Part shown: in pieces, positions 7,145 through 31,619 of the stretch
Numbering within the stretch: the first letter of the stretch is position 1
How the letters are laid out: every line of letters begins with the position of its first letter
The notes under the pieces: model-generated
What the model saw: only the letters and a program-made list of their open reading frames with translations
Database searches by the model: none
What the model was told of the DNA's origin: nothing
DNA from: Nitriliruptorales bacterium
GTDB taxonomy: Bacteria > Actinomycetota > Nitriliruptoria > Nitriliruptorales > Nitriliruptoraceae
DNA length: 53,959 nucleotides
Direction of reading: 5' to 3'
NCBI GenBank assembly: GCA_041591915.1
Contig: JBFHRB010000001.1
Span: 1-53,959, forward strand
Made by a program: the position numbers and the translations under genes

Positions 7145-7162
7145 CCGGCTGCCTCCCTGTCC

Positions 7163-7175
7163 TGACACCTCGTCA
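7163..7175. promoter_or_regulatory. Palindromic operator-like site, N5 variant (TGACACCTCGTCA)
   Basis: Context is CCTGACACCTCGTCAGG. It lies in the 5' untranslated region of ACAD-2, between the putative -10 (TAGCGT on the minus strand, 7190-7195) and the GGGAGG/GTG 7144 start. Confidence 0.5.
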
Positions 7176-7202
7176 GGTCGTCCGCCCCGACGCTAGCATG
7201 AC

Positions 7203-7216
7203 TGACACACGCGTCA
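7203..7216. promoter_or_regulatory. Palindromic operator-like site, TGAC-N6-GTCA class (TGACACACGCGTCA)
   Basis: Lies in the divergent gap between ACAD-2 (-) and ACAD-3 (+). TAGCAT at 7194-7199 sits just upstream on the plus strand. The flank GTCAGGGTCGTCGC is identical to that of the site at 21806. Confidence 0.7.
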
Positions 7217-7252
7217 GGGTCGTCGCGTGCGGGTTCGATGTGGAGGGCGCGC

Positions 7253-10270: not shown

Positions 10271-10283
10271 GACGTCCTCCGGC

Positions 10284-11771
10284 TCAGAAGTCCTTGACGA
10301 GCTCGCGCTTGAGCACCTTGCCCATCGCGTTGCGGGGCAGCTCGTCGACGATCCGCACGTGGCGTGGTCGCTTGTAGTCGGCCAGCCGTTCCTCGCACCA
10401 CTCGGCGATGTCGTCTGCCGTCAGCGCCGCACCGTCCACCGCGACGATGGCGGCGCCGACGTCCTCGCCGAGGACATCGTGCGGCACGCCGACCACGGCC
10501 GCCTCCTGCACGTTCGGGTGCTCGTAGAGGACGTGTTCGATGTCCTGGCAGTAGATGTTGTTGCCACCACGGATGATGACGTCCTTCATCCGCCCGACGA
10601 TGTAGAGGAAGCCGTCCTCGTCGAAGCGGCCGAGGTCGCCCGAGTGGAGCCACCCGTCCTGCCAGGTCTCGGCGGTGGCCTCGTCGTCGTTGAAGTACTC
10701 GCGCTCGCGGCCGGGGTTGCGGATGACGACCTCTCCGACGTCCCCGGTCGCGACGTCGTCCCCGGCCTCGTCGACGATCCGGATCTCCAGCGGTGGGATC
10801 GGCTGGCCGACCGAGCCCGGCCGGTTGTGGAGCTCGCCCTTGGGCATGACGCAGAAGGCCGCCCCGGCCTCGGTCATCGAGTAGCTGTTGGACACCGCGG
10901 CGTTCGGCAGTCCCTCGGCGAACCGGTAGAGCGTGGCGGGTGCGATCGGGGCCGAGCCGATCGAGATCATCGCGATCGACGACAGGTCGCGTACTCCCCA
11001 GTCGGGGTGGTTCACGATCAACTCGACCATCGACGGGACGAGGAACCCCATGAGCACGGGCTCCTCCTCGGCGAGGCGCAGCCACTCGCCCGCGTCGAAC
11101 CGCGGCAGGTACAGCCCGGTGGTCCCCATCCGCGGTGGGACGGTGATGAAGCTGATGCCCGCGAACGTGAACAGCGGCGAGGCGTGGAACCACTTGAGCC
11201 CCGTCCAGGCGTCGGGCGGGCCGATCGGCATCTGGGTCGCGCGGTTGTGGCGCGCCACGACGCCCTTGGGTCGTCCGGTGGTGCCCGACGTGTACAGCAG
11301 GTCGGCCATCGCGTCATCCGGCAGGGCGACCTGGACGTCCTCGTCGTCGTCGGCGACCCAGTCGTCCCACTCGGACACGGCGACGATCCGCTGGATCGAG
11401 GCCACACCCGCGGCGGCCTCGCGGACGCGCGGGAGCAGCTCGTCGCTGGCGACGACCACCCGCGGCTCGCTGTGGCCGAAGATGTGGGCGAGCTCCCTGG
11501 TGCTCAGGCGTACGTTGGTCGGGACGGTCACGCCGCCGGCCTTGTGCACGCCCATGTAGGCCTGCAGGTGCACCAGGGCGTCGCCGGGCGAGCAGCAGAT
11601 CGCCACGCGCTCCTGGGCCCGCAGTCCCTCGTCGATCAGGCGGCGCGCGGCGCGGCTGGCACTGCGGTCCCACCCGGACATGGAGAGGGTCCCGACGCCG
11701 ACCACCTCGTAGGCGTCGACATCGGGGAAGCGCTCGGCGGCGAGGCGTACCTGGTCGCTGACGAGCGGCAC
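10284..11771 (-). CDS. AMP-dependent acyl-CoA synthetase/ligase (FadD-like)
   Basis: Motifs: LLYTSGTTGRPKGV and GWLHSGDLGRFDEDGFLYIVGRMKDVIIRGGNNIY. Confidence 0.9.
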   Translation of the reverse strand: MPLVSDQVRLAAERFPDVDAYEVVGVGTLSMSGWDRSASRAARRLIDEGLRAQERVAICCSPGDALVHLQAYMGVHKAGGVTVPTNVRLSTRELAHIFGHSEPRVVVASDELLPRVREAAAGVASIQRIVAVSEWDDWVADDDEDVQVALPDDAMADLLYTSGTTGRPKGVVARHNRATQMPIGPPDAWTGLKWFHASPLFTFAGISFITVPPRMGTTGLYLPRFDAGEWLRLAEEEPVLMGFLVPSMVELIVNHPDWGVRDLSSIAMISIGSAPIAPATLYRFAEGLPNAAVSNSYSMTEAGAAFCVMPKGELHNRPGSVGQPIPPLEIRIVDEAGDDVATGDVGEVVIRNPGREREYFNDDEATAETWQDGWLHSGDLGRFDEDGFLYIVGRMKDVIIRGGNNIYCQDIEHVLYEHPNVQEAAVVGVPHDVLGEDVGAAIVAVDGAALTADDIAEWCEERLADYKRPRHVRIVDELPRNAMGKVLKRELVKDF

Positions 11772-13624: not shown

Positions 13625-13638
13625 TGACGCGGCTGTCA
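13625..13638. promoter_or_regulatory. Palindromic operator-like site, TGAC-N6-GTCA class (TGACGCGGCTGTCA)
   Basis: Context is GGCTGACGCGGCTGTCAGGTT, in the 67-112 nt divergent gap between the TIM-barrel gene and the cupin operon. The inner positions are less symmetric than at other sites. Confidence 0.55.
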
Positions 13639-14939: not shown

Positions 14940-15514
14940 ACGCGTCCTTCACCCGGATGGACGAGTCCACCCAGGACGACTGGATGACCATCGCGTCGGC
15001 CTCGGTCACCTATGACCGCCAGGTCGTCGATCGGCTCTTCGGGATGCTCCAGGCACTCGGCGAGATCGACGGCGGCTTCGGCGTGACCCAGCTCGACCAC
15101 GCGCTGCAGATGGCCACCATGGCGAGGCGCGACGGGGCCTCGGACGAGCTGGTCGTCGCCGCCCTGCTCCACGACGTCGGCAAGGCCGTGTCGATGGTCA
15201 ACCATCCGGCCATCGCCGCCGAGATCCTGCGGCCGTGGGTCAGCGACGCGACGTACCAGATCGTCCGGACCCACCAGGACTTCCAGGGCCGCCACTACTA
15301 CCACCACTTCGGCGGGAGCCGGGAGCTGCGCGAGCAGTACCGCGACGAGCCGTGGTTCGCGGACGCCGAGCGGTTCACCGACGTGTGGGACCAGGCGGCC
15401 TTCGACCCCGAGTACGACCGGATGTCGCTCGAGGACTTCCGGCCGATCTGCGAACGGGTCTTCTTCGGCGAGGCTGCCGACGGCGTCAGTCGAGCCGAAG
15501 TGGCGGGAGGCTGA
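14936..15514 (+). CDS. HD-domain protein, PhnZ/MIOX-like (putative metal-dependent oxygenase or phosphohydrolase)
   Basis: Starts at ATG 14936, overlapping the hydrolase stop (ATGA). Motifs: LDHALQMATMA, AALLHDVGK, later conserved-looking His residues (VRTHQDFQGRHYYHH) and WDQAAFDP. Confidence 0.7.
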   Translation: MNASFTRMDESTQDDWMTIASASVTYDRQVVDRLFGMLQALGEIDGGFGVTQLDHALQMATMARRDGASDELVVAALLHDVGKAVSMVNHPAIAAEILRPWVSDATYQIVRTHQDFQGRHYYHHFGGSRELREQYRDEPWFADAERFTDVWDQAAFDPEYDRMSLEDFRPICERVFFGEAADGVSRAEVAGG

Positions 15515-17357
15515 ACCAGAACGTGCTCCCGGCCCCGGACCCCGACCCGACGCCGATCTCGCCCCCCATGGCCTCCACGAGCGCACGGCTGAGGTAGAGC
15601 CCGAGCCCCGTGCCGTCGGTGCCCTTCGCGTTGGGCCCTCGCTGGAAGCGGTCGAAGACGCGGGACAGGTCCCGCGGGGCGATCCCGTCGCCCTGGTCGC
15701 GCACCTCGACCCGCACGCGCCCGTCCTCGTGTCGGGCCGAGAGCGTGACGGGGGTGCCGCCGGGTGAGTACTTGATCGCGTTGGACACGAGGTTGGAGAC
15801 GACGAGCTCGATCCGTTCCCGGTCGCCCCGCGCGACCGGCAGGTCCTCGTCGACCTCGACGACCAGGTCGCGCTGGTCGTGGAACGTCCGGACGACGGCC
15901 CGGCAGACGTCGCCCACGTCGACCGGTTCCACACGGACGGGGACTCCGCGTCCGGCCTCGAGTGCGGAGTAGGCGAGGAAGCGCTGCACCAGGTACCGGA
16001 GCCGCGTCGTCTGCCGCAGCAGCGCCTCGCGCACGGCGGCGTCCTCCTCGTCGTCGGGATCGAAGTCGAGCGTGTCGAGGAGCCCGGCGATGACCGCGAT
16101 GGGAGTCTTCATCTCGTGGGACATGCCGGCGAGCAGCTCCTCGCGCGATCGCGCCGACTCCTCGGTCGCGATCTGGTCCGCGAGGCGGGCGTTCTCGAGG
16201 GCGGCGCTGGCGACCTGGGCGAGCTGCGCGAGGAGCACGTCGTCGGTCTCGGAGAACCGCTCGGTCGACGCCGAGCGCAGCCGGATCGAGCCGAGCAGCT
16301 CGCCGGTCCGGCCGACCATGGCAGCGGCGCGTTCGCGCGCGGGGTCGAGTTGGAGCTCGACGTAGTCCGCTGTCAGGGCCTCGGACTCGCGGGGCGCGAG
16401 CGAGACCTCGACCTCGTCGACGGGGAAGAGCCCGCCGGCCTCGTGCTCGATGAGGGCGACCACCTCGTCGTCGCGCAGGCGGGCATGCGCACGCGTCGCT
16501 GCCTGGACGAGCTGTCGGAGCCGCGCCGTGGTCGACTCCATGGCCCGGGCCTGCTGGAAGGCCGTGTCCTCGTGGGTGTTCAGGAGCTGTTCCAGTGCCG
16601 TGACACGCTCGGCCAGCGCCGTGCGTTCGTCGACCTGGTTGTCCGCGAGGATGTGCGGCAGCAGCCCGACACGCAGGCTCAGCGAGATCGTGCGGAAGCG
16701 GTCCGCGACCGGACGCCGGACGGGTTGCCGTGTGAACATGATCGCGGCGAGCAGGTCCCCGGTGACGAGCAGGCCACCGAAGCCGAGGACGCTCGCGATC
16801 CCGTAGCGCTCGACGAACTCCGCCTGCGCGGGGACGAACGGGCTGCCCGCGGCGTCCTCCACGTGGAAGACGTTGTAGGTCCGCTCGCTCGCATCGACCA
16901 GCACGTCCTCCGCGGGATCGACGACCGTCGCGATGTCGAGCCCCAGCTGGGAGATGAGGCGCGCGATCATCGGTGAGCGCTCGACCGCCTCCGTGCTCAC
17001 GAGCGGGAGCGCGAGGTGGCCGCGGGACCGCTCGGGGTCGTTCCAGTCGGGCTCGATCCCGCGCGTCGCCATCAGCCGGAGGCAACGCCGGCCCGTCAGG
17101 TCCTCGTCCGGGGCCAGCGCGGCCGCGAAGTCCTGGAGGTCCGGCGGGAGCTGCTCGAACGGTGTCGTCCGGAACACGCGGACGAGCGCGCACGCGCGAT
17201 CACCGGCGCGATCGCGCAGCGAGTCGTGGAGGAGGTCGACCACCTCTCGGCAGGCGTCCGCGAGGTCCGTGGCATCCGTCGTGGCGGCTCGCAGCCGCCC
17301 GCCGAGGTCGACCATGTCGCTCAGCGAGAAGGCGGTCAGCTCGTACGTCGCCCCCAC
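15486..17357 (-). CDS. Soluble sensor histidine kinase with a long N-terminal sensory region (GAF-like), no adjacent response regulator
   Basis: H-box MSHEMKTPIAVIAG, N-box NLVSNAIKYSP, G1 DQGDGIAP, G2 GTGLGLYLS. No hydrophobic transmembrane segments are evident. Confidence 0.9.
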   Translation of the reverse strand: MGATYELTAFSLSDMVDLGGRLRAATTDATDLADACREVVDLLHDSLRDRAGDRACALVRVFRTTPFEQLPPDLQDFAAALAPDEDLTGRRCLRLMATRGIEPDWNDPERSRGHLALPLVSTEAVERSPMIARLISQLGLDIATVVDPAEDVLVDASERTYNVFHVEDAAGSPFVPAQAEFVERYGIASVLGFGGLLVTGDLLAAIMFTRQPVRRPVADRFRTISLSLRVGLLPHILADNQVDERTALAERVTALEQLLNTHEDTAFQQARAMESTTARLRQLVQAATRAHARLRDDEVVALIEHEAGGLFPVDEVEVSLAPRESEALTADYVELQLDPARERAAAMVGRTGELLGSIRLRSASTERFSETDDVLLAQLAQVASAALENARLADQIATEESARSREELLAGMSHEMKTPIAVIAGLLDTLDFDPDDEEDAAVREALLRQTTRLRYLVQRFLAYSALEAGRGVPVRVEPVDVGDVCRAVVRTFHDQRDLVVEVDEDLPVARGDRERIELVVSNLVSNAIKYSPGGTPVTLSARHEDGRVRVEVRDQGDGIAPRDLSRVFDRFQRGPNAKGTDGTGLGLYLSRALVEAMGGEIGVGSGSGAGSTFWFSLPPLRLD

Positions 17358-17377: not shown

Positions 17378-18481
17378 CTAGCCGCGCCTCGCCCGCTCGA
17401 TGCTCGCCCCGGTCGCGACGAGGCGCTCCTCGCTGCCACGCGGCCCGATCAGCTGCAGGCTGGTCCGTCGGTCGTCCGTGACCGGCAACGACAGGGCCGG
17501 GACGCGCCCGAGGTTGACGGGGATCGTCAGCAGGCTCAGGTTCAGCTCCGCGAGGGCGAGGTCGCCGTCGAGACGCGGGATGTCGACGGGGATGGTCGGT
17601 GTCGCGATCGCGTCCACCTGCCCGAAGGCCTCCTCGAGCTCAGCCACCCACGCGCGGCGTGTCTCTCGCGCGGCGTCCAGTTGCTCCTCGGTCACGTGGT
17701 CCGCGCCGGCGAGCCGCTGGCGGACCTCCTCGCTCAGCCCCTCGCGCTCCAGCAGGTGGCCGGCGACCTCGCGCGACTCGACCAGCAGCAGCGTGGCCCC
17801 GGCCTCCCACGCGGCCTGCCACAGCGGGAGCTCGATCGGGACGACCTCGATGCCCGTCGCCGCAAGGGCCTCGTCGACCGCCTGGTCGATGTGTGCCGCG
17901 GTGAGCGGGTGGCGGAAGCGGCCGATCCGTCGGGCGGGCTCGCCGCGGGCGAAGTCCGGCTCGATCAGCTGCATGCAGCGTTCGACCCCGTCGACGTCCG
18001 CGGCCATGGGGCCGACGGAGTCGAGGGTCGTGGTGAGCGCCTTGACGCCGTCGAGCGGCACACGTCCGAACGTCGTCTTGAGCCCGACGATGCCGCAGCA
18101 CGCCGCCGGGATGCGGATCGAGCCGGCGGTGTCCGAGCCGTAGGCGACGTCCGCGTCGCCGGCACCGACCGCGGCGGCCGAGCCCCCGGACGAGCCGCCC
18201 GGCACGAGCGCGGGATCGAGCGGGTTGACCGGCGTGCCGAACGCCTCGTTGATCCCGGTCGCGCCGAAGCCGAGCTCGTGCAGGTTCGTCTTGCCCACGA
18301 TCCGCGCACCCTGGGCCAGGGCGGTCGCCACGACGCTCGCGTGCGCCGGGGCCGGGACGGCGTGGTCGGCGATCGCGCGGCTGGCGCAGGTCGTCGGCAC
18401 GCCCTCGATGTCGATGAGGTCCTTGACCGCGAGACGGAGGGGGCCGTCGCCGAGGTCGAGTCGGGTGATGAAGGTGGACAC
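17378..18481 (-). CDS. Amidase-signature family amidase
   Basis: Contains GGSSGGSAAAVGAG...GSDTAGSIRIPAACCGIVGLKTTFGRV and an upstream VKDLIDIEG (catalytic Lys region). It is short (367 aa). Confidence 0.85.
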   Translation of the reverse strand: MSTFITRLDLGDGPLRLAVKDLIDIEGVPTTCASRAIADHAVPAPAHASVVATALAQGARIVGKTNLHELGFGATGINEAFGTPVNPLDPALVPGGSSGGSAAAVGAGDADVAYGSDTAGSIRIPAACCGIVGLKTTFGRVPLDGVKALTTTLDSVGPMAADVDGVERCMQLIEPDFARGEPARRIGRFRHPLTAAHIDQAVDEALAATGIEVVPIELPLWQAAWEAGATLLLVESREVAGHLLEREGLSEEVRQRLAGADHVTEEQLDAARETRRAWVAELEEAFGQVDAIATPTIPVDIPRLDGDLALAELNLSLLTIPVNLGRVPALSLPVTDDRRTSLQLIGPRGSEERLVATGASIERARRG

Positions 18482-18514: not shown

Positions 18515-19708
18515 TCAGATCGTGCCAGCGGCGAGGGCGGCATCGAACTCGGCTCGATCGAGCCCGACGAGGTCGCGCCAGACCGCCGCATTGTCCGCTC
18601 CGAGCTCGGGCGCGCCCCGGGGCGGTGGTGGGCGCCGCCCGTCGAAGCGCGGGTAGGGGGCCTGCTGGGCGATGGGCCCGGCGACCGGGTCGTCGACGAT
18701 GACGCGGTCGCCGCGTGCCGTCATGTGCTCGTCGTCGGCGATGTCCGAAGCCGTGTAGGCCCGGCCGACGGGGACGTTGTTGTCCACGCAGCGGCGCTCG
18801 ACCTCGTCGGCTTCCAGGGCCGCGCACCACTCCGCGACCATGCCGTGGAGCTCGTCGGTGTTGGCGACGCGGTCGTCGAGCGTGGCGAAGCGTTCGTCCG
18901 CGACGAGGTCGGGGCGCTGCATGGCGTCGCACAGGCGCGAGAAGTTCATGTCCGATCCGGCGGCGATCGCGACGTACTCACCGTCCGCGCACGCGAAGTT
19001 GTCCATGGGTGCGGAGGTCGGGATGCGGTTGCCGTGGCGGCCGCGGACGAGACCGAGGCGGTCGTGGCCGGCGATCGTCCATTCGAGGATGCGCAGGATC
19101 GACCCGTACAGCGGGGCGTCGATGACCCGGCCATGTCCGGTGCCGGCCACGTCACGCTCGTACAGGGCCGCCACGGTCGCCTCGGCGGCGAACACGCCGG
19201 TGAGGTAGTCCGACAGCGTGACCCCCGGGCGCACGGGTGGCCGCTCGGGCTCACCGGTGAGGTGGAGCAGTCCCCCCATCGCGATGCCGACGCGGTCGAG
19301 GCCGGGGCGGTCGCGGTAGGGGCCGTCCTGGCCGAACGCGGAGATGCGCGTGACGACCAGGCGGTCCGGCAGGTCGTCCGGGCCGATGTTCCACCGCTCG
19401 AGCGTGCCGGGCCGGAAGTTCTCGACGACCACGTCGGCGTGCTCGGCGAGCCGCCGGAAGAGGGCCTGGCCCGCCGGGGTCCGGAGGTTGCACGTGACGC
19501 TCTGCCGGCCGCGGCCCTCGACGGCCCACCACAGCGAGTAGCCGTCGTCGAAGGGCCCGATGCCCCGCATGAAGTCGCCGCGACCCGGATCCTCGACCTT
19601 GATGACCTCCGCGCCCTGCTCGCCGAGGATCCCGGCGCAGAACGGCGCAGAGATGCGCGTGCCGAGGTCGAGCACGCGCAGGCCGGCGAGCGGCTGCGGG
19701 GCGCTCAC
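18515..19708 (-). CDS. Family III CoA-transferase (CaiB/BaiF / alpha-methylacyl-CoA racemase-like)
   Basis: N-terminal sequence LAGLRVLDLGTRISAPFCAGILGEQGAEVIKVEDP. The GTG start overlaps the hydratase stop (GTGA). Confidence 0.9.
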   Translation of the reverse strand: MSAPQPLAGLRVLDLGTRISAPFCAGILGEQGAEVIKVEDPGRGDFMRGIGPFDDGYSLWWAVEGRGRQSVTCNLRTPAGQALFRRLAEHADVVVENFRPGTLERWNIGPDDLPDRLVVTRISAFGQDGPYRDRPGLDRVGIAMGGLLHLTGEPERPPVRPGVTLSDYLTGVFAAEATVAALYERDVAGTGHGRVIDAPLYGSILRILEWTIAGHDRLGLVRGRHGNRIPTSAPMDNFACADGEYVAIAAGSDMNFSRLCDAMQRPDLVADERFATLDDRVANTDELHGMVAEWCAALEADEVERRCVDNNVPVGRAYTASDIADDEHMTARGDRVIVDDPVAGPIAQQAPYPRFDGRRPPPPRGAPELGADNAAVWRDLVGLDRAEFDAALAAGTI

Positions 19709-20571
19709 GCGTCCTCGTCGGACGCGTCAGCGTCGGCCGGCGCACCCCGGTCGCGCGCCTCGAACACCTCGCGCATCGAGGACTTCTTCCGGCGCTCCTC
19801 GAACAGGCCGAGGGCGGTCTCGGTGTTGGACGTGAACTGGTGGATCATGAAGTGGTTGCGCCAGGCCGCGCGCAGGCCCATCAGGTCCTGCGCGTCGTTG
19901 ATCGAGCGCTTCACCATCTGCGCGGTGATCGGCGGGACCTTGCTGATCTGGTCGGCGAGGTCGGCCGTGGCCTTCTCGAGGTCTGCGCGGGCGACGACGC
20001 GGTTGACCAGCCCGAGCCGCCACGCCTCCTGGGCGTCGATCGTCTCGCCCGTGAGCAGGAACTCCTTGGCCTTGCGGAACCCGAGCTCGTAGGGCTCGAC
20101 GAGGAGCTCGACGCCGGCCCCGCTCATCCGCAGGACTGGGTTGCTGAAGAAGGCGTCGTCCGCGGCCACGATCAGGTCGCACATGCACGCGAGCATGAGC
20201 CCGGCGGCCACGCACGCCCCCTGCACCTGGGCGATCGTCGGCTTGCGGAACTCCCGGAGCCGCAGCGACGGGTCGTAGTACATGACCTCCTCGTGGAGGA
20301 GCTTGCCCTCCGCGGTGGCACGCATCCGGCGCCAGTCGTCGGCCTCGTCGGGGTCGAGGATGCCCTTGAGGTCGTGGCCGGCGTTGAAGTGCTCGCCCGC
20401 GCCGGCGAGGACGACGACGCGGACCTCGTCGTCCGCGTCGAGCTCGACGAGGGCCGCGTCGATGTCCTCGATCAGCTCGGTGCCGAGCGCGTTGCGGCGG
20501 TCGGGGCGGTTCATGGTCATCGTCGCGACCGGCCCGCGGCGGGTCACCTCGAGCCATCGGTACTCGCTCAT
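19705..20571 (-). CDS. Enoyl-CoA hydratase/isomerase (crotonase) family protein
   Basis: Starts at ATG 20571 (MSEYRWLEVTRRGPVATMTMNRPDRRNAL). Contains VVVLAGAGEHFNAGHDLK. The upstream 57 aa of the track ORF were rejected. Confidence 0.9.
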   Translation of the reverse strand: MSEYRWLEVTRRGPVATMTMNRPDRRNALGTELIEDIDAALVELDADDEVRVVVLAGAGEHFNAGHDLKGILDPDEADDWRRMRATAEGKLLHEEVMYYDPSLRLREFRKPTIAQVQGACVAAGLMLACMCDLIVAADDAFFSNPVLRMSGAGVELLVEPYELGFRKAKEFLLTGETIDAQEAWRLGLVNRVVARADLEKATADLADQISKVPPITAQMVKRSINDAQDLMGLRAAWRNHFMIHQFTSNTETALGLFEERRKKSSMREVFEARDRGAPADADASDEDA

Positions 20572-20605: not shown

Positions 20606-21790
20606 TCACGAGCGTGGCAGCCCGAGGATGCGCTCACCGATGACGTTGCGCTGGATCTCGCTGGTCCCGGCGAAGATCGTCGCCGCCAGGTAGTACAGCC
20701 ACGACCGCTGCAGGCGGCCGTCGCCGGGGTTGCCGGGCGCACCCTGCCAGAGCGGCGCGGCCGGGCCGAGCACCTCCATGAGCGTGCGGTGCAGGTCCTG
20801 GCTCCGCTCGGACCAGTAGAGCTTGAGGAGCGACCCCTCCGGCCCCGGGTCCTCGCCCTTCTCCAGCCGCGACAGCGTCCGCCAGTTGTGGAGCTGGAAG
20901 ACGCGGATGTCGGCGTAGGCCTGGGCGAGGCGCTGCTCGATGCGCGGGTCGTCGATGCGGCCGCTCTCGAGCGCGAGGCGGAGGAGCTCCTCGACGAGCT
21001 GGAGGTGCTTGACGAGCTGGCGCGGGCTCGTGCCGCGCTCGTGGGAGAGGGTCGACCGCGTGACCTGCCACCCGCGATCGACCTCGCCGATCAGCTGGTC
21101 GTCCGGCACGAAGGCGCCGTCGAGGACGACCTCGTTGAACTCGGCCTCCCCGGTGAGCTGGATCAGCGGGCGGATCTCGACCTCGGGCTGGTGCATGTCG
21201 ACGACGAGGTAGGTGATGCCACGGTGCTTGGGCGCGTCGGGGTTCGTCCGCGCGAGGCACAGCCCCCAGTCCGCGAACTGGGCGTAGCTGGTCCAGACCT
21301 TGCGTCCGGTCAGGCGCCAACCACCCTCCACGCGCTCCGCGCGAGTCGCGAGCCCCGCGAGGTCGCTGCCGGCCTCGGGCTCGCTGAAGAGCTGACACCA
21401 GAAGTGCGACGCATCGAGGATGTGCGGCAGCCACCGCTCCTTCTGAGCGGGCGTGCCGTGCGCGAGCAGTGTCGGCCCCGCGAGGTTCACGCCGATACGG
21501 CCCAGGAGCTCCGGCGCACCGGCCCGCGCCAGTTCCTCCTGCACGATGTAGTGCTCGGCCGGCCCGGTGCCGCGTCCGCCGTACGCCTGCGGCCAGGCGA
21601 CCGCCACCCAGCGGCCGGCAGCGAGGCGCTCCTGCCAGACGCGCAGGTAGGCGACCTCGTCGGCCAGGTCGTCGAAGTGCGGGTGCTCCGCGCGACCGTC
21701 CGGCCCCACCTCCCAGGTCCGGTTCTCGGCGAGCCACGCGCGCAGCTCGTCGCGGAAGGCGAGCTGGTCGGCGGTCCAGGCGAGGTCCAT
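20606..21790 (-). CDS. Acyl-CoA dehydrogenase family protein (ACAD-4, long type)
   Basis: Starts at ATG 21790 (MDLAWTADQLAFRDEL). Motifs: FWCQLFSEPEAGSDLAGL and the C-terminal AGTSEIQRNVIGERILGLPR. The 640-aa track ORF is an artefactual extension across the divergent gene. Confidence 0.9.
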   Translation of the reverse strand: MDLAWTADQLAFRDELRAWLAENRTWEVGPDGRAEHPHFDDLADEVAYLRVWQERLAAGRWVAVAWPQAYGGRGTGPAEHYIVQEELARAGAPELLGRIGVNLAGPTLLAHGTPAQKERWLPHILDASHFWCQLFSEPEAGSDLAGLATRAERVEGGWRLTGRKVWTSYAQFADWGLCLARTNPDAPKHRGITYLVVDMHQPEVEIRPLIQLTGEAEFNEVVLDGAFVPDDQLIGEVDRGWQVTRSTLSHERGTSPRQLVKHLQLVEELLRLALESGRIDDPRIEQRLAQAYADIRVFQLHNWRTLSRLEKGEDPGPEGSLLKLYWSERSQDLHRTLMEVLGPAAPLWQGAPGNPGDGRLQRSWLYYLAATIFAGTSEIQRNVIGERILGLPRS

Positions 21791-21797
21791 GGCGGTG

Positions 21798-21803
21798 ATG
21801 CTA
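21798..21803 (-). promoter_or_regulatory. -10-like hexamer TAGCAT, 7 nt upstream of the ACAD-4 ATG (leaderless candidate)
   Basis: The minus strand reads TAGCAT-CACCGCC-ATG. There is no purine-rich Shine-Dalgarno sequence. Confidence 0.5.
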
Positions 21804-21805
21804 GG

Positions 21806-21819
21806 TGACGCGCGTGTCA
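21806..21819. promoter_or_regulatory. Palindromic operator-like site, TGAC-N6-GTCA class (TGACGCGCGTGTCA)
   Basis: Centred in the 52-nt divergent gap between ACAD-4 and ACAD-5, flanked by the two -10-like hexamers. Confidence 0.75.
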
Positions 21820-21829
21820 GGGTCGTCGC

Positions 21830-21835
21830 TAGGCT
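21830..21835 (+). promoter_or_regulatory. -10-like hexamer TAGGCT, 7 nt upstream of the ACAD-5 ATG (leaderless candidate)
   Basis: The plus strand reads TAGGCT-CGCTCGC-ATG (21843). There is no Shine-Dalgarno sequence. Confidence 0.5.
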
Positions 21836-21842
21836 CGCTCGC

Positions 21843-22853
21843 ATGGACTTCGAGCTCTCCGCGGACCAGCGGGCACTGCGCGAGGCGGCGGCACGGCTGC
21901 TCGCCGACCGGGCCTCGCCCGAGCGCGTGCGCGCCATCGTCGATGCCGGGTCCGGGTTCGACGAGGAGCTCACCAAGCACGTCGTCGAGCAGGGCTGGCT
22001 CGCGCTCGACCTCCCCGAGGCCGAGGGTGGCATCGGCCTGGGCTTCGTCGAGCCCTGCGTGCTGGCCGAGCAGGTCGGCCGCCACGTCGCGCCGGTGCCC
22101 TTCGTCTCCAACGTGCTCGCGATCGAGGCGGCGCGGATCGCCGGGCGCGGGGACTGGGTCGAGCGGCTCGTGTCGGGTGTCGCGCGGGGCGCGGTGGCCT
22201 GGGGCGACGGGGTCGTGGCCGACCTGCCCGTCGCGGACCTGCTGGTGATGGTGGGCGAGCACCAGGTGATGGGTGCCGAGCTCACCGCACCGATCGAGGC
22301 CGTGCCCGTGATGGACGTCACCCGCGCGGTCGCGCGGATGCCGTCCGTCCTGCCGGACGTGTCCGTGCTCGGCGACGGCTCGGCCGCCTCTCGCCTCCTC
22401 GACCGGGGCGCGACGCTGCTGGCCTGCGAGCTCCTCGGCGCGAGCGAGCGGATGCTCGAGGTGGCGACCGAGTACGCGAAGATCCGCGAGCAGTTCGGCA
22501 AGCCGATCGGGTCGTTCCAGGCGGTCAAGCACCGACTCGCCGATGCGCTCGTCGACGTCGAGGGGATGCGCTCGGCGGCCTACTACGCGGCGTGGGCCGT
22601 CTCGGTCGACGCCGACGACGCCCCGCTGGCCGCCTCCACCGCGAAGGCCTGGTGCTCCGATGCGGCCGACCGTGTGATGCGCGCGGCGCTGCAGGTCCAC
22701 GGTGGCATCGGCTTCACGTGGGAGCACGACCTGCACCTCTACCTCAAGCGGGCGCAGCTCAGCGGGGTGCTGTTCGGCGACGCGGTGTTCCACCGCCGCC
22801 GCATCACTCGCCTGCTCCGGGAGCGTGTCGAGGCCGGCGCCGACCTCTGGTGA
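21843..22853 (+). CDS. Acyl-CoA dehydrogenase family protein (ACAD-5, short type; possible partner subunit of ACAD-4)
   Basis: Starts at ATG 21843 (MDFELSADQRALREAA). Contains LQVHGGIGFTWEHDLHLYLKRAQ. Length is 336 aa. Confidence 0.8.
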   Translation: MDFELSADQRALREAAARLLADRASPERVRAIVDAGSGFDEELTKHVVEQGWLALDLPEAEGGIGLGFVEPCVLAEQVGRHVAPVPFVSNVLAIEAARIAGRGDWVERLVSGVARGAVAWGDGVVADLPVADLLVMVGEHQVMGAELTAPIEAVPVMDVTRAVARMPSVLPDVSVLGDGSAASRLLDRGATLLACELLGASERMLEVATEYAKIREQFGKPIGSFQAVKHRLADALVDVEGMRSAAYYAAWAVSVDADDAPLAASTAKAWCSDAADRVMRAALQVHGGIGFTWEHDLHLYLKRAQLSGVLFGDAVFHRRRITRLLRERVEAGADLW

Positions 22854-22858
22854 GCTGG

Positions 22859-24301
22859 TCAGTCCGCCGCGGCCGCCGCGAGCGCGGCAACGGCGCGGCG
22901 GTCGGGCTTGCCGGCGTCGAGTCGAGGGACCGCGTCGACCGCGACGACGACCTCGGGGGTGGCGAAGCGTGCGACGCCGTGTGACTCGCAGGCCGTGGTG
23001 ACGTCGGCCAGCGCGGGCCGGGCATCCGCCTCGACCACCAGCGCGACGCGCTGGCCCAGCCGCTGGTCGGGGACGCCGACGACGACGGCGAGTCGGACGC
23101 CCGGCAACGTCGCGCAGGCGGCCTCGACCTCGGCGGGGGCGATGTTCTCGCCACCCCGGATGATCGTGTCGTCCGCGCGCCCGACGACGGTGAGCCAGCC
23201 GTCCTCGAGGCGGCCGAGGTCGCCGGTGTGGAACCAGCCGTCGCGCAGCGCCGACGCGGTTGCCTCCGGGTCGTCGTAGCCGAGGAAGAGCTCGGGGCCG
23301 CGGACGACGATCTCGCCGACCTCGCCGTCCGGGAGGTCGGTGCTGGTCGCGGGGTCGGCGATGCGGAGCTCGACGCCGGCCGTGGGGCGGCCGTCCGTCG
23401 CGCGCGTCCGCGCCGGGTCGTCGCCGACGTGGCCGGTCGTGACGGTCGGGGCCTCGGTCGAGCCGTAGGTGCGCTTCACGTCCGCCCCGAGCCGATCGCG
23501 GGCGCGGTCGACGAAGCCCGGCGTGACGCCGGCGCCGCCGGACGACACCAGCCGCAGCGACTCCACGCGGGTGGGGGAGAAGGACGGGGTGTTCCAGAGG
23601 TCGACGAAGAACGTGGGCGGCCCGATCATGAACGTGACCCCGTGCTGCTCGATGAGGTCGAGCGCCGAGTCGGCGTCCCAGCGGCCCATCAGCACGGTCG
23701 TCATCCCGGCCGCGCCCGGCAGCAGCACGCCGTTGAGGAGCCCGGAGATGTGCGCGAGCGGCGCGGGCATCAGCACGACGTCGTCGGAGGCCAGCCCGTG
23801 CGCGCCGGCCATCGTCTCGGCCTTGTGCCGCAGCCCGCCGTGGCCGTGGCGGACGAGCTTCGGCGTCCCCGTCGAGCCTGACGTGGCCAGCAGCACGGCG
23901 ACCTCCGGGTCGGCCGGTTGCTGGAGCACATCGCCCATCCCCACCAGTGTCGTGATCGGGTCGCCGGGACCGCCGACGTGGATGGCGCCATCGGGGTGGT
24001 CGCGTGCGGCGCTCAGGACGACCGCGGGGCGTGCACGCTCCAGGACGGCGCCACGTCGGGCGGCGCCGCCCCTGGGGTGCAGCGGCAGCGCCGTGAACCC
24101 GCCCTGCCAGCAGGCATGGAAGAGCGCGACCCCCTCCCAGATGTTGGGCAGCTCGAACGCGACCGCGTCGCCGGGTGACGCCCCGAGGCCGCCGAGGCCC
24201 GCAGCGATCGAGCGTGCCCGGTCGAGGAGCTCGTCCGGCTCGAGCACCCGCTCACCGTCGATGACACGCGGCGGTGACAGGTCGTGGAGCGAGTCGCTCA
24301 C
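22859..24301 (-). CDS. AMP-dependent synthetase/ligase (acyl-CoA ligase-like)
   Basis: Starts at GTG 24301 (VSDSLHDLSPP). Motifs: LATSGSTGTPKLV and GWFHTGDLGRLEDGWLTVVGRADDTIIRGGENI. The upstream 180 aa of the track ORF overlap ACAD-6 and were rejected. Confidence 0.85.
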   Translation of the reverse strand: MSDSLHDLSPPRVIDGERVLEPDELLDRARSIAAGLGGLGASPGDAVAFELPNIWEGVALFHACWQGGFTALPLHPRGGAARRGAVLERARPAVVLSAARDHPDGAIHVGGPGDPITTLVGMGDVLQQPADPEVAVLLATSGSTGTPKLVRHGHGGLRHKAETMAGAHGLASDDVVLMPAPLAHISGLLNGVLLPGAAGMTTVLMGRWDADSALDLIEQHGVTFMIGPPTFFVDLWNTPSFSPTRVESLRLVSSGGAGVTPGFVDRARDRLGADVKRTYGSTEAPTVTTGHVGDDPARTRATDGRPTAGVELRIADPATSTDLPDGEVGEIVVRGPELFLGYDDPEATASALRDGWFHTGDLGRLEDGWLTVVGRADDTIIRGGENIAPAEVEAACATLPGVRLAVVVGVPDQRLGQRVALVVEADARPALADVTTACESHGVARFATPEVVVAVDAVPRLDAGKPDRRAVAALAAAAAD

Positions 24302-24341: not shown

Positions 24342-25538
24342 TCACCGCCAGGCGGGCCCGGACGGCGCCCGGCCAGCGGCCACGCGCGAGCCGACGAAGT
24401 TGCGCTGCACCTCGACCGTGCCGGCCCCGATGTTGAGGCCACGGATGTCGCGGTAGATGCGCTCGACCGGGAACTCGCGCGAGTAGCCGTAGCCGCCGAG
24501 GAGCTGGATGGCCTCGTCGCACACGTACTTGGCGGCGAGGTTCGCCTTCGCCTTCGCCATGCCGGTCTCGAGGGCGGGCGGCGTGCCGTGCACGTCGGCC
24601 AGGGCGACCGCCCGGTAGAGGAGCAACCGGGCGCTCTCGAGCTCGATCGCCATGTCGGCGAACTTCCACTGCAGGCCCTGCAGATCGCGCAGCGCCTTGC
24701 CGCCGATGACCCGGTCGTTGGCGTAGGCGACGGCGTGCTCGAGCGCTGAGTGGGCCGCCCCGACGCACATCGCGGCGTTGCCGCAGCGCTCGTGGTTGAG
24801 GTGGGCCAGCAGCGTCCGGAAGGCCGCCTCGTCGTCGCCATGGACGACGACGTCGTCGGGCGTGACCACGACGTCGTCGAAGACGAGCTCCGCCTCCGTG
24901 ACGCCCTTGAGGCCCATCTTCTTGTGCGTGCCGGCGATGCTGACGCCGTCCGCCGAGAGGTCGACGACCACCGAGCCGATGCCCTTGGCGCCCTGGCTCC
25001 CAGGGAAGCGCGTCCACACCAGGCACGCGTCGGCCTTGTGCCCGCCCGTGACGTAGTTCTTGTAGGCGTTGAGCCGCCACGTTCCGTCGCCGGCGTCGGT
25101 CATCGACGCACGCATCTCCATCACGGCGGAGCCGGCCTCGGCCTCCGTGATGCCGAGGCAGAACAGCGACTCGCCGGAGGCGGCGCGTGGGAGCCACCGG
25201 TCCTTGAGCACGTCGGTGCCGAGGTGCTCGATCGCGCGGGGTGCGCCGTTGTAGACGAGCTGCAGCAGGATGGCGCTCGACACGTCCCCGTGTGCGAGCT
25301 CCTCGAGGACGATGGTCGACTCGACGTCGCCCATGCCCATGCCGCCCCAACGCTCCCCGGTGGTGATGCCGTTGAGGCCGGCCTGCTGGTAGGCCTTCCA
25401 CGCCTCCTCGGGGAAGCGTTCGTGCTCGTCCCAGTCAGCGGCGCGCGGGGCGAGGTCGCGCTCGGCCACCTCGCGAGCCAGCGCTCGCAGGGCGGCCTGG
25501 TCCTCGGTGTCGGCGAGCAGGTCGCGTCCGGCGTCCAC
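24342..25538 (-). CDS. Acyl-CoA dehydrogenase (ACAD-6, canonical homotetramer-like type)
   Basis: Motifs: GITEAEAGSAV, GYGYSREFPVERIYRDIRG and GAGTVEVQRN. The GTG start is preceded by GAGGAG. Confidence 0.9.
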   Translation of the reverse strand: MDAGRDLLADTEDQAALRALAREVAERDLAPRAADWDEHERFPEEAWKAYQQAGLNGITTGERWGGMGMGDVESTIVLEELAHGDVSSAILLQLVYNGAPRAIEHLGTDVLKDRWLPRAASGESLFCLGITEAEAGSAVMEMRASMTDAGDGTWRLNAYKNYVTGGHKADACLVWTRFPGSQGAKGIGSVVVDLSADGVSIAGTHKKMGLKGVTEAELVFDDVVVTPDDVVVHGDDEAAFRTLLAHLNHERCGNAAMCVGAAHSALEHAVAYANDRVIGGKALRDLQGLQWKFADMAIELESARLLLYRAVALADVHGTPPALETGMAKAKANLAAKYVCDEAIQLLGGYGYSREFPVERIYRDIRGLNIGAGTVEVQRNFVGSRVAAGRAPSGPAWR

Positions 25539-25575
25539 GCGGGCTCCTCGATGTCGCGTGCGTGGCCCTAGCCTA

Positions 25576-25589
25576 TGACACGCGTGTCA
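25576..25589. promoter_or_regulatory. Palindromic operator-like site, perfect 14-mer TGACACGCGTGTCA
   Basis: Lies in the divergent gap between ACAD-6 (-) and the amidohydrolase (+). TAGCCT at 25569-25574 is immediately upstream on the plus strand; its reverse complement TAGGCT region serves the minus strand. Confidence 0.75.
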
Positions 25590-26951: not shown

Positions 26952-28304
26952 TCAGTGGGGTCTTCGTCGGAGCCGCACGGTGTCGGCGGCGATGGTGACG
27001 GTGGTGTCGGTGGCGATGTGGCGCCAGGTGCGGGTGCCGTCGCGGTTGGCCGCGTGGGTCCAAGCGCCGTTGGTCTTGACGGTGTGGTGCCGCCGACAGG
27101 TCGGGGCGATGTTGGGCAGGTCGGTGCGTCCGCCGTGTCGCCACTCGTGGGCGTGATCGAGGTCGGCGGTGCGTGCGGGGCGTCGGCAGCCGGGGTGGAT
27201 ACAGGTGGAGTGCATCGCCAGGGAGGCGTCGCGTAGCCAGCCGGGTGGGATGCGGGTGCGGCGTCCGACGCCGATGGCGTCGCCGTGGTCGTCGAGCACG
27301 ATCAGCCGCACCGCGGCCCCGTCCTCGTCCATCAGCCGCCGAGCGGTCTTGCCGGTCACCCGGAGGCGTCCGCCGGTGAGGGTGGTGAGTAGGTGTGCGG
27401 GTCGGTGGGCGAGCCAGAGGAGGGTCTCGAGGTCGCAGGTGACCATCACCTTGGGCTTGGCCCTGCGCGGTCCGCTGTCGCCCTCGCCCGCGCTGGGGCT
27501 GCCGGCGAGCCACGCCTCGCACAGAGACACGAGCCGGTCAGCACGCTGGCGCCCGATCCGTTCACGGTTGCGGCCGCGCGACTCGTCATCGACCGAAGCC
27601 TCGAGCCCGTCAGTATCGGGCGTGAGCGCCTCGGCGATCGTCGCGAACCCCACGGCGTCGAACTCGCCGTACAGCTGACCGCCGGTGCCGTCGAGCCGCG
27701 GCTGCAAGGCGAGGAACGACCCCTCACGCGCCCGCTCCTCGGAGGTCTCGAGGTCTCGGTGGCGGATCTCGTCCACCAGCTCGGTCACCCGGTACAGGAT
27801 CGCCTCGGGCTCGGCATTGGCGAACACGTCCAACCGCTCCGAGATCGCCGCATCCACCTCGGCCGCCTGCTCGCTGCGCAGGCGTCGGCAGTCCAGCACG
27901 ATCGACCGGACCTGCCCCCACGACAATCGCCCGGCCCGGAACGCCCCGAGCGTCCGCGGCATCCGCCCCAACACGTCCGCGGCTGTCACGAGCATCCGTC
28001 GGTCCGCGGGCACCGCCCCACAGTTGCGCAGCAACCAGATCTCGACCGGCAACCCGGTCACGGCCTCGACCCCACCACGGCCCTGCAGCTCGACGAGCAG
28101 GCTGACCATGCGGGCCGTCATCTGATCCACGGCCTGCGCGAGGTCCACGAGCTCGGCCAGCTGCGGCACCGGCTGCCCGGCGTAGCCCTCTCGGTCGGGC
28201 ACTTCGACGGAGGCCCCGTACGTCGCCCGCGCCTCACACGCCAAGACGTCCCGCCGCTGCAGCAGCGGCCGATCACCAAGGCGGAGTCGCGAGGTCAACG
28301 TCAT
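26952..28304 (-). CDS. DUF222 domain + HNH endonuclease (REP13E12-like selfish gene)
   Basis: Starts at ATG 28304 (MTLTSRLRLGD). The C-terminal HNH region is CIHPGCRRPARTADLDHAHEWRHGGRTDLPNIAPTCRRHHTVK. It is flanked by about 200-nt non-coding stretches, unusual for this window. Confidence 0.85.
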   Translation of the reverse strand: MTLTSRLRLGDRPLLQRRDVLACEARATYGASVEVPDREGYAGQPVPQLAELVDLAQAVDQMTARMVSLLVELQGRGGVEAVTGLPVEIWLLRNCGAVPADRRMLVTAADVLGRMPRTLGAFRAGRLSWGQVRSIVLDCRRLRSEQAAEVDAAISERLDVFANAEPEAILYRVTELVDEIRHRDLETSEERAREGSFLALQPRLDGTGGQLYGEFDAVGFATIAEALTPDTDGLEASVDDESRGRNRERIGRQRADRLVSLCEAWLAGSPSAGEGDSGPRRAKPKVMVTCDLETLLWLAHRPAHLLTTLTGGRLRVTGKTARRLMDEDGAAVRLIVLDDHGDAIGVGRRTRIPPGWLRDASLAMHSTCIHPGCRRPARTADLDHAHEWRHGGRTDLPNIAPTCRRHHTVKTNGAWTHAANRDGTRTWRHIATDTTVTIAADTVRLRRRPH

Positions 28305-28515
28305 GCCAGCACCGTAGAACCGGGGTGTGACACGGATCCCGACGCTCACCACAGCCGTCCACACCCGAACGGCCGCCGCCCGCAAGGGCTCCGGCCTGTC
28401 CGGATCGCCGCAGGGCAGCCACCGCCCGTAGCGGACCGCAGCACGACCCCAGGACGCCCGCCCCCTAGGCTCCACCCCACCTTCCCCACCGCACGACACG
28501 ACACGGGGGAGAGGT

Positions 28516-29793: not shown

Positions 29794-29809
29794 GCCCCTG
29801 CGCCTAGGC

Positions 29810-29823
29810 TGACGCGCACGTCA
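29810..29823. promoter_or_regulatory. Palindromic operator-like site, TGAC-N6-GTCA class (TGACGCGCACGTCA)
   Basis: TAGGCT at 29805-29810 overlaps the first base of the site. GGGAGG and GTG 29838 follow. Confidence 0.7.
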
Positions 29824-29837
29824 GGGAGGCGCGTCGA

Positions 29838-31619
29838 GTGCAGGACACGGAGCCGGGGGTGGCAACCCGCGATGCCCCCGCGCCCGGCAAGGGCCCGATC
29901 CCGTTCGGGTCGGTTGCCGAGCTGCTGCGACGCAACGTCGACGCGCGGGCGGACGAGCCGTTCGTCCTCTTCGGCGACGAGGTCGCCTTCACGCATCGCG
30001 ACTACGCGGAGGCGTGCCGCCGCTGGGCGACCGTCCTCGCCGACCTCGCCGGCACCGAGGCGCCACGTCACGTCGGGCTGCTGCTGCAGAACACGCCGAC
30101 CTACCTCGCCATCCTCGGCGGGGCCGCGCTGGCAGGTGTGACCGTCGTCGGCCTCAACGACACGCGCCACGGAACCGAGCTGCGACGCGACATCGAGCAC
30201 ACGGACTGCCGGGCCGTGATCGTCGAGCCGGCGACCGCTGCGCTCCTCGCCGACCTCGACCTCGACGTGCCCGTGCTGACCACGTGGGCGTTCGCCAGCG
30301 ATGCCGCGCCAGAGGCCGCGGCACGCGCCCCCGCCGCCGGCTCGGACACCGATGTCGACGCGCTCGTCGCCGCGGCCGACCCTGTCGACCTCGAAACCCC
30401 GCCGCCCGACCTCGCGACCACCTGGTGCCTCGTCCTCACCTCCGGATCGACCAGCGCCCCCAAGGCCGTCATCTGCTCGCAGCGACGGCTGCTGCAGTCG
30501 GGGGAGCGGCTACGGATGCTGATCGGCGTCACGCCGGCGGACACGGCCTACGTGTCGATGCCGCTGTTCCACTCGAACTCGATCATGGTCGGGTTCCTGC
30601 CGGCGCTGATCGCGGGTGCGTCGATCGGGCTGGCCCGCAGGTTCACGGCGTCCGGATGGCTGCCAGACGTCCGCCGCTACGGGGCGACCTACTGGAACTA
30701 CACCGGCCAGCCCCTGAGCTACATCCTCGCGACACCGGAGGCCGACGACGACGCCGACAACAGCATCCGCCGGGTCTTCGGCAACGAGGCCTCGCCCGAG
30801 TCGCAGACGCGGTTCGCGGCGCGCTTCGGCTGTGAGGTCGTCGACATGTTCGGGGCGTCCGAGGGCGGCGTCGGGATCATCCCGTCACCCGACACCCCGC
30901 CCGGCGCGCTGGGCAAGCCCCCGCCGAACGTGCTCGTCCTCGACCAGACGGGCACGCCGTGCCCGACCGCCGAGTTCGACGAGCACGGCCGGGTCATCAA
31001 CCTGATGGACTGCATCGGCGAGATCGTCAACATCGAGGGCGCGGGCCCGTTCGAGGGCTACTACCGCAACGACGAGGCCAATGCCGTCGCCACCCGCTTC
31101 GGCTACTACTGGACCGGCGACCTCGGCTACGTCGACCGCGACGGGTGGCTCTACTTCGCCGGACGCGACGAGTCGTGGATCCGCGTCGGCGGCGAGAACT
31201 TCACGCCCGGACCGATCGAGCGCGTCGTCTCCCGCCACCCCGACGTGCTCGTGTCCACCGTGTACGGCGTGCCCGACGCGGACGCCGGCGACCAGGTCGT
31301 CGCGGCGATCCAGCTCGGCGACGGTGCGGAGTTCGACGGGGCCGGTTTCGCGACGTGGCTCGACGCGCAGGGCGACCTCAGCGCCACCTGGTCACCGCGC
31401 TACGTCCGGGTCTCGGACGAGCTCCCTCGGACCGCGACCAACAAGGTCCTGACGCGCCAGCTCCGCACCGAGGGCCTGCACCTGGATCGCATCGGGGCGG
31501 ACGAGGTGTACGTGCGCGACCGCGGTGCCGACGCCTTCCGTCCGTTCACGGCCGACGACGAGGCCGCGCTGGCCGCCGAGTTCGCTGCGGCGGGCCGCAG
31601 CCGGTTCTGGGAGCGGTAG
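29838..31619 (+). CDS. Long-chain acyl-CoA synthetase (FadD-like)
   Basis: Motifs: LVLTSGSTSAPKAV and YYWTGDLGYVDRDGWLYFAGRDESWIRVGGENF. Length is 593 aa. Confidence 0.9.
   Translation: MQDTEPGVATRDAPAPGKGPIPFGSVAELLRRNVDARADEPFVLFGDEVAFTHRDYAEACRRWATVLADLAGTEAPRHVGLLLQNTPTYLAILGGAALAGVTVVGLNDTRHGTELRRDIEHTDCRAVIVEPATAALLADLDLDVPVLTTWAFASDAAPEAAARAPAAGSDTDVDALVAAADPVDLETPPPDLATTWCLVLTSGSTSAPKAVICSQRRLLQSGERLRMLIGVTPADTAYVSMPLFHSNSIMVGFLPALIAGASIGLARRFTASGWLPDVRRYGATYWNYTGQPLSYILATPEADDDADNSIRRVFGNEASPESQTRFAARFGCEVVDMFGASEGGVGIIPSPDTPPGALGKPPPNVLVLDQTGTPCPTAEFDEHGRVINLMDCIGEIVNIEGAGPFEGYYRNDEANAVATRFGYYWTGDLGYVDRDGWLYFAGRDESWIRVGGENFTPGPIERVVSRHPDVLVSTVYGVPDADAGDQVVAAIQLGDGAEFDGAGFATWLDAQGDLSATWSPRYVRVSDELPRTATNKVLTRQLRTEGLHLDRIGADEVYVRDRGADAFRPFTADDEAALAAEFAAAGRSRFWER

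Follow-up and report, generated by a model that had tools for sequence, protein, structure and literature searches.

Two acyl-CoA dehydrogenase (ACAD) genes, ACAD-4 on the minus strand and ACAD-5 on the plus strand, diverge from a gap of 52 nt (21791-21842) in a 53,959-nt stretch of DNA from a Nitriliruptorales bacterium (contig JBFHRB010000001.1, positions 1 to 53,959), the whole of which is referred to here as the window. The gap carries a 14-nt palindrome of the type TGAC-N6-GTCA between two predicted -10 hexamers. We consider it rather probable that the gap contains a pair of leaderless, divergent and overlapping promoters, one for each partner subunit of an alpha2beta2 ACAD, and that the pair would be repressed jointly, through an operator that is used across the surrounding gene cluster. 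Two back-to-back promoters of the housekeeping sigma factor would occupy the gap, with transcripts beginning at, or a few nucleotides from, the ATG codons, and both mRNAs would thus be leaderless. Expression of ACAD-4 and of the four genes that follow it would depend on TAGCAT on the minus strand, and that of ACAD-5 on TAGGCT on the plus strand. One dimer of a DNA-binding repressor would bind TGACGCGCGTGTCA and keep RNA polymerase off both promoters; with the -10 hexamer of ACAD-4 immediately next to the site and the -35 zone of ACAD-5 under it, both would be blocked at once. Binding of an inducer, which is probably a lipid or steroid acyl-CoA or some metabolite related to these, would free the two promoters together, and the same operator would govern at least eight other promoters in the catabolic cluster. 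Competition between the two promoters would be a further consequence, since with predicted start sites 53 bp apart the polymerase footprints would overlap. What the analysis shows directly are the sequence features, how far they are conserved and enriched, and the homology of the two subunits; we infer the start sites, repression rather than activation, the identity of the regulator and its ligand, and the formation of the heteromer.

Strict co-regulation of ACAD-4 and ACAD-5 would have a clear reason, since the genes appear to code for partners in one enzyme, an alpha-like and a beta-like subunit. Gene models were taken from a frame plot of third-codon-position G+C (GC3) together with Pfam. 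The top PDB matches of ACAD-4 are Tcur3483 (6wy8_B/6wy9_A, about 4e-54) and 4x28_A (2e-53), and those of ACAD-5 are Tcur3481 (6wy8_A, 2.9e-37) and 4x28_D (1e-30). Within alpha2beta2 ACADs the alpha chain holds the FAD isoalloxazine and the catalytic Glu, and the beta chain touches the ADP-ribose (PMC11153573, PMC6678751). The Pfam middle domain found no match in ACAD-5. To judge from these matches, ACAD-4 and ACAD-5 are most likely partner subunits of one alpha2beta2 steroid-type enzyme. An earlier note on this DNA, made from the letters alone, contained neither this alpha/beta identity nor the eight further operator copies described below.

The window has a G+C content of 72%. Direct reading of the plus strand over 21780-21850 (gtcCATggcggtgATGCTAggTGACGCGCGTGTCAgggtcgtcgcTAGGCTcgctcgcATGgac) gave the same coordinates, hexamers, 7-nt spacers and 52-nt gap as the earlier note, and its statement that both start codons lack a Shine-Dalgarno sequence also proved correct, as GGAG, GAGG and AGGA are absent upstream of the ATG of ACAD-4 and of ACAD-5. 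The palindrome does lie between the two -10 hexamers, 2 nt from that of ACAD-4 and 10 nt from that of ACAD-5, yet it is not a perfect one: TGACGCGCGTGTCA matches in six of its seven pairs, with a G/T mismatch at positions 5 and 10. Counted from the predicted starts, it spans -16 to -29 in the ACAD-4 promoter and -24 to -37 in the ACAD-5 promoter, in agreement with the claim that it covers the spacer and -35 zone of both predicted promoters. It thereby overlaps core elements of each, and a similar geometry is found in orthologues. Its description as a central operator has to be given up, since the mirror axis of the two promoters and starts falls at 21816.5 and the palindrome is centred 4 bp away, at 21812.5, and the trait that recurs among orthologues is that the operator abuts one -10 hexamer.

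The annotated start codons are well placed, and the suggestion that the real ones might be internal finds no backing in Pfam, public gene calls or orthologue alignments. The Pfam N-terminal domain begins at residue 6 in ACAD-4 and residue 7 in ACAD-5, tblastn alignments of orthologues begin at residue 1 for both proteins, and the public annotation of four assemblies with 99.0-99.5% identity has the same two products, of 394 aa and 336 aa, with an equal gap of 52 nt between their genes. One of these four assemblies carries a single substitution, which is confined to the centre of the operator. A longer ACAD-5 from the in-frame ATG at 21789 was considered and rejected; it would add 18 codons with a GC3 of 72% and rare codons, and the extension is found in no orthologue.

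Relatives of ACAD-4 were collected from species-representative genomes, nearly all of them Acidimicrobiia metagenome-assembled genomes (MAGs), at 65-71% amino-acid identity. The resulting set comprises 80 loci, in 47 of which an ACAD-5 orthologue lies divergently beside the ACAD-4 orthologue across a gap of 19-116 nt; counts given out of 48 include the gap of the window as well. A strict TANNNT hexamer with a spacer of 5-10 nt precedes 47 of 81 ACAD-4 sequences (58%) and 36 of 65 ACAD-5 sequences (55%), against 311 of 50,928 control ATG or GTG codons in related DNA (0.6%), an enrichment of about 90-fold at both starts. Shine-Dalgarno-like motifs are found in only 10 of the 81 ACAD-4 and 12 of the 65 ACAD-5 sequences. 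The comparison of orthologous gaps that had been put forward as a check thus came out in favour of the arrangement, as the divergent pair, the -10 hexamers and the operator all recur among the 47 loci. The mirror symmetry noted earlier holds for the window, with spacers of 7 and 7 nt, but it is not a conserved trait: the most frequent spacer is 6-7 nt in ACAD-5 orthologues and 9 nt in ACAD-4 orthologues, and the exact 7/7 symmetry is not kept.

Eight loci (L019-L023, L027, L030 and L048) have gaps of 19-20 nt, and seven of these have TACCAT and AATGGT overlapping on opposite strands. In L010 and L044, where the gaps are 27-28 nt, the palindrome fills the gap and both -10 hexamers lie in its centre (GCTAGC or GTTAGT). 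Gaps of 19-28 nt have no space for a leader plus a promoter, which favours leaderless starts. Together with the conserved spacing of the -10 hexamers and the lack of Shine-Dalgarno sequences, these gaps lend weight to the leaderless interpretation, and both ACAD-4 and ACAD-5 look leaderless.

Start signals elsewhere in the species are in keeping with this. In a sample of 30 publicly called genes of the same species (loci L203 and L081, 99% identical to the window), about 20 have a Shine-Dalgarno-like motif. A distance of 26-31 nt from TANNNT to the start, with a Shine-Dalgarno sequence, is found in eight genes, and a distance of 6-7 nt without one in three, namely ACAD-4, ACAD-5 and a DUF222/HNH gene located near window 28302-28316. 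This suggests that the leaders of the organism are very short and uniform. Because the genes fall into two spacing groups, the hexamers are credible promoter markers and the absence of a Shine-Dalgarno sequence at both ACAD genes is meaningful.

The operator is not confined to the ACAD-4/ACAD-5 gap. Exact TGACN6GTCA sites number nine in the window (Table 1) against 1.07 expected, a count reached in none of 100 shuffles. Every copy is located at a gene start with a TANNNT hexamer adjacent to it or overlapping it, and most have GGG after them or CCC before them. The copies at 25576 and 53929 are the perfect palindrome TGACACGCGTGTCA. At site 2088 TACGGT on the minus strand is 4 nt away and TAGCGT on the plus strand 8 nt away. 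Overlapping -10 hexamers, TAGCCT (plus) and TAGGCT (minus), occupy 25569-25575 and abut the operator at 25576. The centre of site 47926 contains -10-like hexamers on both strands, TAGCGT and TAGAGT, so that the operator and both -10 boxes are fused in a layout matching the gaps of L010 and L044. The P450 gene beyond site 53929, which starts just past the window end, was seen in L081 at 9233-10462.

A second divergent pair of alpha/beta-type ACAD genes, at 5936-7144 (minus) and 7253-8350 (plus), encodes proteins 38% and 36% identical to ACAD-4 and ACAD-5, and its gap (7145-7252) holds the operator at 7203. Sites 7203 and 21806 are followed by the same 10 nt, gggtcgtcgc. Both genes flanking site 7203 have leaders with GGAGG-type Shine-Dalgarno sequences, and an extra palindrome with a 5-nt centre, TGACACCTCGTCA, is present at 7163-7175. 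The two cassettes look like a duplicated control region that has evolved into leadered and leaderless forms. Because the paralogous pair keeps the operator and the adjoining 10 nt yet uses leaders and has a second palindrome, the control region of these ACAD pairs is evidently very plastic.

The 80 related loci contain 66 occurrences of the motif, compared with 4-10 in shuffles, and its flanks read CC..GG. It is present in 24 of the 47 orthologous gaps (25 of 48), with the half-sites kept and the centre variable. Most operator-bearing gaps have it right next to one -10 hexamer, at a distance of -2 to 3 nt. Several others place it over the -35 zone, 18-21 nt upstream, and elsewhere it contains the -10 hexamer or sits just downstream of it, over the predicted start site. 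All of the placements observed are repressor-type positions. The geometry of L071 is that of the window, with a 52-nt gap and an operator centre 30.5 and 22.5 nt from the starts. Genes adjacent to the motif encode ACADs, enoyl-CoA hydratases, AMP-ligases, amidohydrolases, P450s, phosphotransferase-like proteins and SRPBCC proteins. On the basis of the nine promoter-linked copies in the window and the recurrence in about half of the orthologous gaps, TGAC-N6-GTCA is the predicted regulon operator of this catabolic gene cluster.

An exact 18-mer that includes the motif flanks, CCTGACACGCGTGTCAGG, was found in more than 118 places, mostly in Acidimicrobiia, with some in Binataceae (L086, L087, L098 and L112) and five copies in a single Mycobacteriales MAG, SMAG_U6203 (L096, L110, L118, L158 and L159). 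The cognate regulator has probably spread across phyla. A wider interpretation can be offered more tentatively, at somewhat less than an even chance: CCTGAC-N6-GTCAGG would be the operator of an undescribed repressor, widespread in Acidimicrobiia, of a steroid/lipid-type catabolic regulon, and the two subunits would be co-expressed not as an operon but from compact, mutually exclusive divergent leaderless promoters, which evolution would have compressed in some genomes into gaps of 19-28 nt. As part of the same tentative proposal, some of these compressed gaps would hold the -10 hexamers of both promoters in the operator centre.

Several observations weigh against joint repression of two leaderless promoters. 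The spacers of ACAD-4 orthologues are mostly 9-10 nt, so that many of these genes may carry a leader of 2-3 nt and would not be strictly leaderless. Strict -10 hexamers on both sides plus an operator are found in only 7 of 48 gaps. A generic sigma-70 promoter and terminator scan gave no result, although this carries little weight for Actinobacteria because the scan demands a -35 match, and promoters lacking a consensus -35 are expected to escape it. A weak plus-strand hexamer, GATGCT (21797-21802), is present 3 nt before the operator and could yield a second, leadered ACAD-5 transcript. Our literature search returned no paper tying leaderless mRNAs to Acidimicrobiia. Lastly, no regulator gene turned up in the window or beside the motif in about 200 loci, and repression is accordingly read from the position of the operator.

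The strongest competing explanation, which we regard as unlikely, is that one or both genes have their promoters further upstream, inside the opposite gene, and that the mRNAs concerned are leadered without a Shine-Dalgarno sequence, the TANNNT hexamers near the ATG codons not being working -10 elements. For ACAD-5, GATGCT could start a leader of about 35 nt containing the operator, as at 7203, 25576 and 29810. Other operator sites in the window do combine a -10 hexamer 0-4 nt upstream of the operator with a leadered gene, and the distance from GATGCT to the operator equals that from TAGCAT to the operator at 7203; GATGCT, however, does not have the consensus first T, and a leader of this kind would be without a Shine-Dalgarno sequence, unlike those of the leadered targets in the window, which show clear GGAGG-type sites. 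Some orthologues have no strict -10 hexamer near one start, but the enrichment of TANNNT at 5-10 nt applies to both starts, and the orthologous gaps of 19-28 nt again argue for leaderless transcripts.

It is less probable still that an activator or a dual regulator, and not a repressor, acts at the palindrome. In several orthologues about 42.5 nt separate the operator centre from one of the starts, a position like that of a class II activator, yet in most of those gaps the other start is about 21.5-26.5 nt away from the site. In other places the operator is adjacent to a -10 hexamer or contains one (47926, L005, L010 and L044), and at 7203, 25576 and 29810 it is just downstream of the -10 hexamer, over the predicted start. 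Our searches identified no regulator, which leaves some room for this alternative. A chance meeting of short motifs in a short gap, with no regulatory meaning, is very improbable: the 7/7 symmetry and a weak wider dyad are not conserved, the RNA fold is marginal and the generic promoter scan was null, but the hexamers and the operator are both strongly enriched and are conserved across species.

The dyad just mentioned extends weakly across 21791-21842, and GCTAGG occurs twice, at 21800-21805 and 21828-21833. Folded as RNA, the 52-nt gap gives -25.2 kcal/mol, with a z-score of -2.0 that is marginal against shuffles. Both the dyad and the fold are probably by-products of two outward-facing TAG-type -10 boxes. 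An RNA element in the gap was considered and rejected, as an Rfam search of 21600-22000 gave no match, the fold barely beats shuffles, and the gap would be untranscribed if both mRNAs are leaderless.

The search for the regulator covered the window and the motif-bearing loci. Within the window, Pfam analysis of essentially all open reading frames supported by GC3 found no DNA-binding protein or transcription factor, only a histidine kinase. When the genes flanking the motif were clustered, for the 80 orthologous loci and for 118 loci with the 18-mer, no recurrent transcription factor emerged, and a phmmer sweep for TetR-like open reading frames near the motif did not bring one up either. Past the right end of the window, the gene that follows site 53929 is the P450 gene and not a regulator. 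A literature search found no paper mentioning the operator motif. One TetR candidate (L166/L207) forms a divergent pair with a thiolase gene, and the 18-mer occupies the space between the two. It was rejected, since its orthologues in L208-L210 have a different palindrome, the AT-rich repeated ATAATCATGTGATTAT, directly upstream of their own start. This palindrome is presumably the autoregulatory operator of the TetR protein, unrelated to TGAC-N6-GTCA, and the TGAC site at L166/L207 probably serves the thiolase gene. With respect to the earlier proposal of one repressor site for both mRNAs, the shared predicted operator is upheld; as for repression by a dimeric protein, we infer it from the symmetry and the positions of the site.

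ACAD-4 is the first gene of a minus-strand operon, the order of which matches the public gene calls (Table 1). The histidine kinase would fall under the ACAD-4 operator because it is the last gene of this operon; it has no adjoining response regulator. ACAD-5 appears to be monocistronic, since the next gene, encoding an AMP-ligase, is convergent. The public start of the amidohydrolase gene, ATG 25575, overlaps the operator at 25576 by two bases, and GTG 25605, which is preceded by GGGGAG, looks the more likely start.

Table 1. Predicted operators, promoter elements and genes, with positions in the window
Feature	Position	Strand	Remarks
ACAD-4 start	CAT 21788-21790	-	ATG, A at 21790; direct reading
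Predicted -10 of ACAD-4, TAGCAT	21803-21798	-	ATGCTA on plus; 7 nt CACCGCC, then ATG
Predicted -10 of ACAD-5, TAGGCT	21830-21835	+	7 nt CGCTCGC, then ATG 21843
Predicted operator TGACGCGCGTGTCA	21806-21819	none	TGAC-N6-GTCA type; between the two -10 hexamers
Predicted operator	2088-2101		14-mer identical to the 21806 copy; between AMP-binding-family gene (-) and DUF2889 gene (+)
Predicted operator	7203-7216		in gap of paralogous divergent alpha/beta ACAD pair
Predicted operator	13625-13638		between AP_endonuc_2 (xylose isomerase-like TIM barrel) gene (-) and cupin gene (+)
Predicted operator, perfect	25576-25589		between ACAD gene 24342-25538 (-) and amidohydrolase gene (+)
Predicted operator	29810-29823		upstream of AMP-ligase gene (about 29850-31619, +); overlaps TAGGCT 29805-29810
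Predicted operator	41639-41652		identical 14-mer; start of hydantoinase B, methyltransferase and hydantoinase A genes (-)
Predicted operator TGACTCTAGCGTCA	47926-47939		upstream of minus-strand operon: 466-aa protein, thiolase, enoyl-CoA hydratase
Predicted operator, perfect	53929-53942		upstream of cytochrome P450 gene just past window end
ACAD-4, alpha-type ACAD subunit, 394 aa	20606-21790	-	Pfam N, M and C domains
ACAD-5, beta-type ACAD subunit, 336 aa	21843-22853	+	Pfam N and C domains only
Enoyl-CoA hydratase	19705-20571	-	second gene, ACAD-4 operon
CoA-transferase III	18515-19708	-	third gene, ACAD-4 operon
Amidase	17378-18481	-	fourth gene, ACAD-4 operon
Histidine kinase	15486-17357	-	last gene, ACAD-4 operon
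AMP-ligase	22859-24301	-	convergent neighbour of ACAD-5

The mechanism as such, with a repressor acting on overlapping divergent promoters and with leaderless mRNAs, is already textbook knowledge for Actinobacteria. The Acidimicrobiia are an abundant and mostly uncultured actinobacterial class, and their transcription signals and regulons are apparently undescribed, as far as our literature search goes. For these organisms the locus offers a concrete model of promoter and operator, and the operator consensus provides a means of following a lipid/steroid-type catabolic regulon through many MAGs. The locus also suggests that the partner subunits of an obligate heteromer could be co-regulated from a shared bidirectional leaderless region and not as an operon, an arrangement that bears on subunit stoichiometry and expression noise.

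The closest known parallel is the regulon of KstR, a TetR-family protein that controls ACAD-rich lipid and cholesterol catabolic genes in Mycobacterium and Rhodococcus; its 14-bp palindrome, TnnAACnnGTTnnA, partly overlaps the -10 element and has many copies between divergent genes (PMC1995591). Palindromic repressor sites between divergent lipid-catabolic genes were thus already documented (PMC1995591), and the design is neither unusual nor as symmetric as the earlier note took it to be. As with KstR, a 14-bp palindrome recurs here in a cluster of ACAD, CoA-ligase, hydratase and P450 genes, many copies lie between divergent genes, and the -10 hexamers are overlapped or abutted in a manner predicted to block RNA polymerase. 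The operator TGACRCGCGYGTCA nevertheless has only the inner AC..GT and outer T..A in common with TnnAACnnGTTnnA, and TGACGCGCGTGTCA is without AAC..GTT at positions 4-6 and 9-11; because its sequence fails the KstR motif, it is not a KstR site. Furthermore, our searches brought up no regulator gene here, KstR-like or otherwise, and the host is outside Mycobacteriales.

Start-site studies in M. tuberculosis, M. smegmatis and Streptomyces have reportedly found leaderless mRNAs. In C. glutamicum 33% of mRNAs are leaderless and the -10 element is TANNNT, as quoted in PMC5401885, which accords with the earlier remark that leaderless transcripts are common in actinobacteria. The two predicted ACAD promoters resemble such cases in having a TAGNNT-type -10 hexamer 6-7 nt before the ATG, no Shine-Dalgarno sequence and a start codon whose first base is a purine. 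They differ from the usual ones in that two such promoters stand back to back, 53 bp apart. The bidirectional promoters of Warman et al. 2021 have start sites 7-25 bp apart, mostly 18 bp, and overlapping -10 elements, as described in PMC10268837. By this definition the window gap fails, with its predicted starts 53 bp and its -10 hexamers 26 bp apart, whereas the orthologous gaps of 19-20 nt and the window site at 25569-25575 would fit.

With regard to the enzyme, ACAD-4 matches the alpha chains and ACAD-5 the beta chains of alpha2beta2 steroid ACADs such as ChsE4-ChsE5 and Tcur3481-Tcur3483 (6WY8), PDB entry 4X28 being taken here as ChsE4-ChsE5 (FadE26-FadE27). The shortness of ACAD-5 and its want of a Pfam middle-domain match are counted as a further likeness to the beta chains of these enzymes. 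In M. tuberculosis the genes for the subunits of alpha2beta2 ACADs are adjacent, point in the same direction and lie within operons. Here and in the 47 related loci, by contrast, the subunit genes are divergent and share one promoter region, which makes this the less usual arrangement for an alpha/beta ACAD pair.

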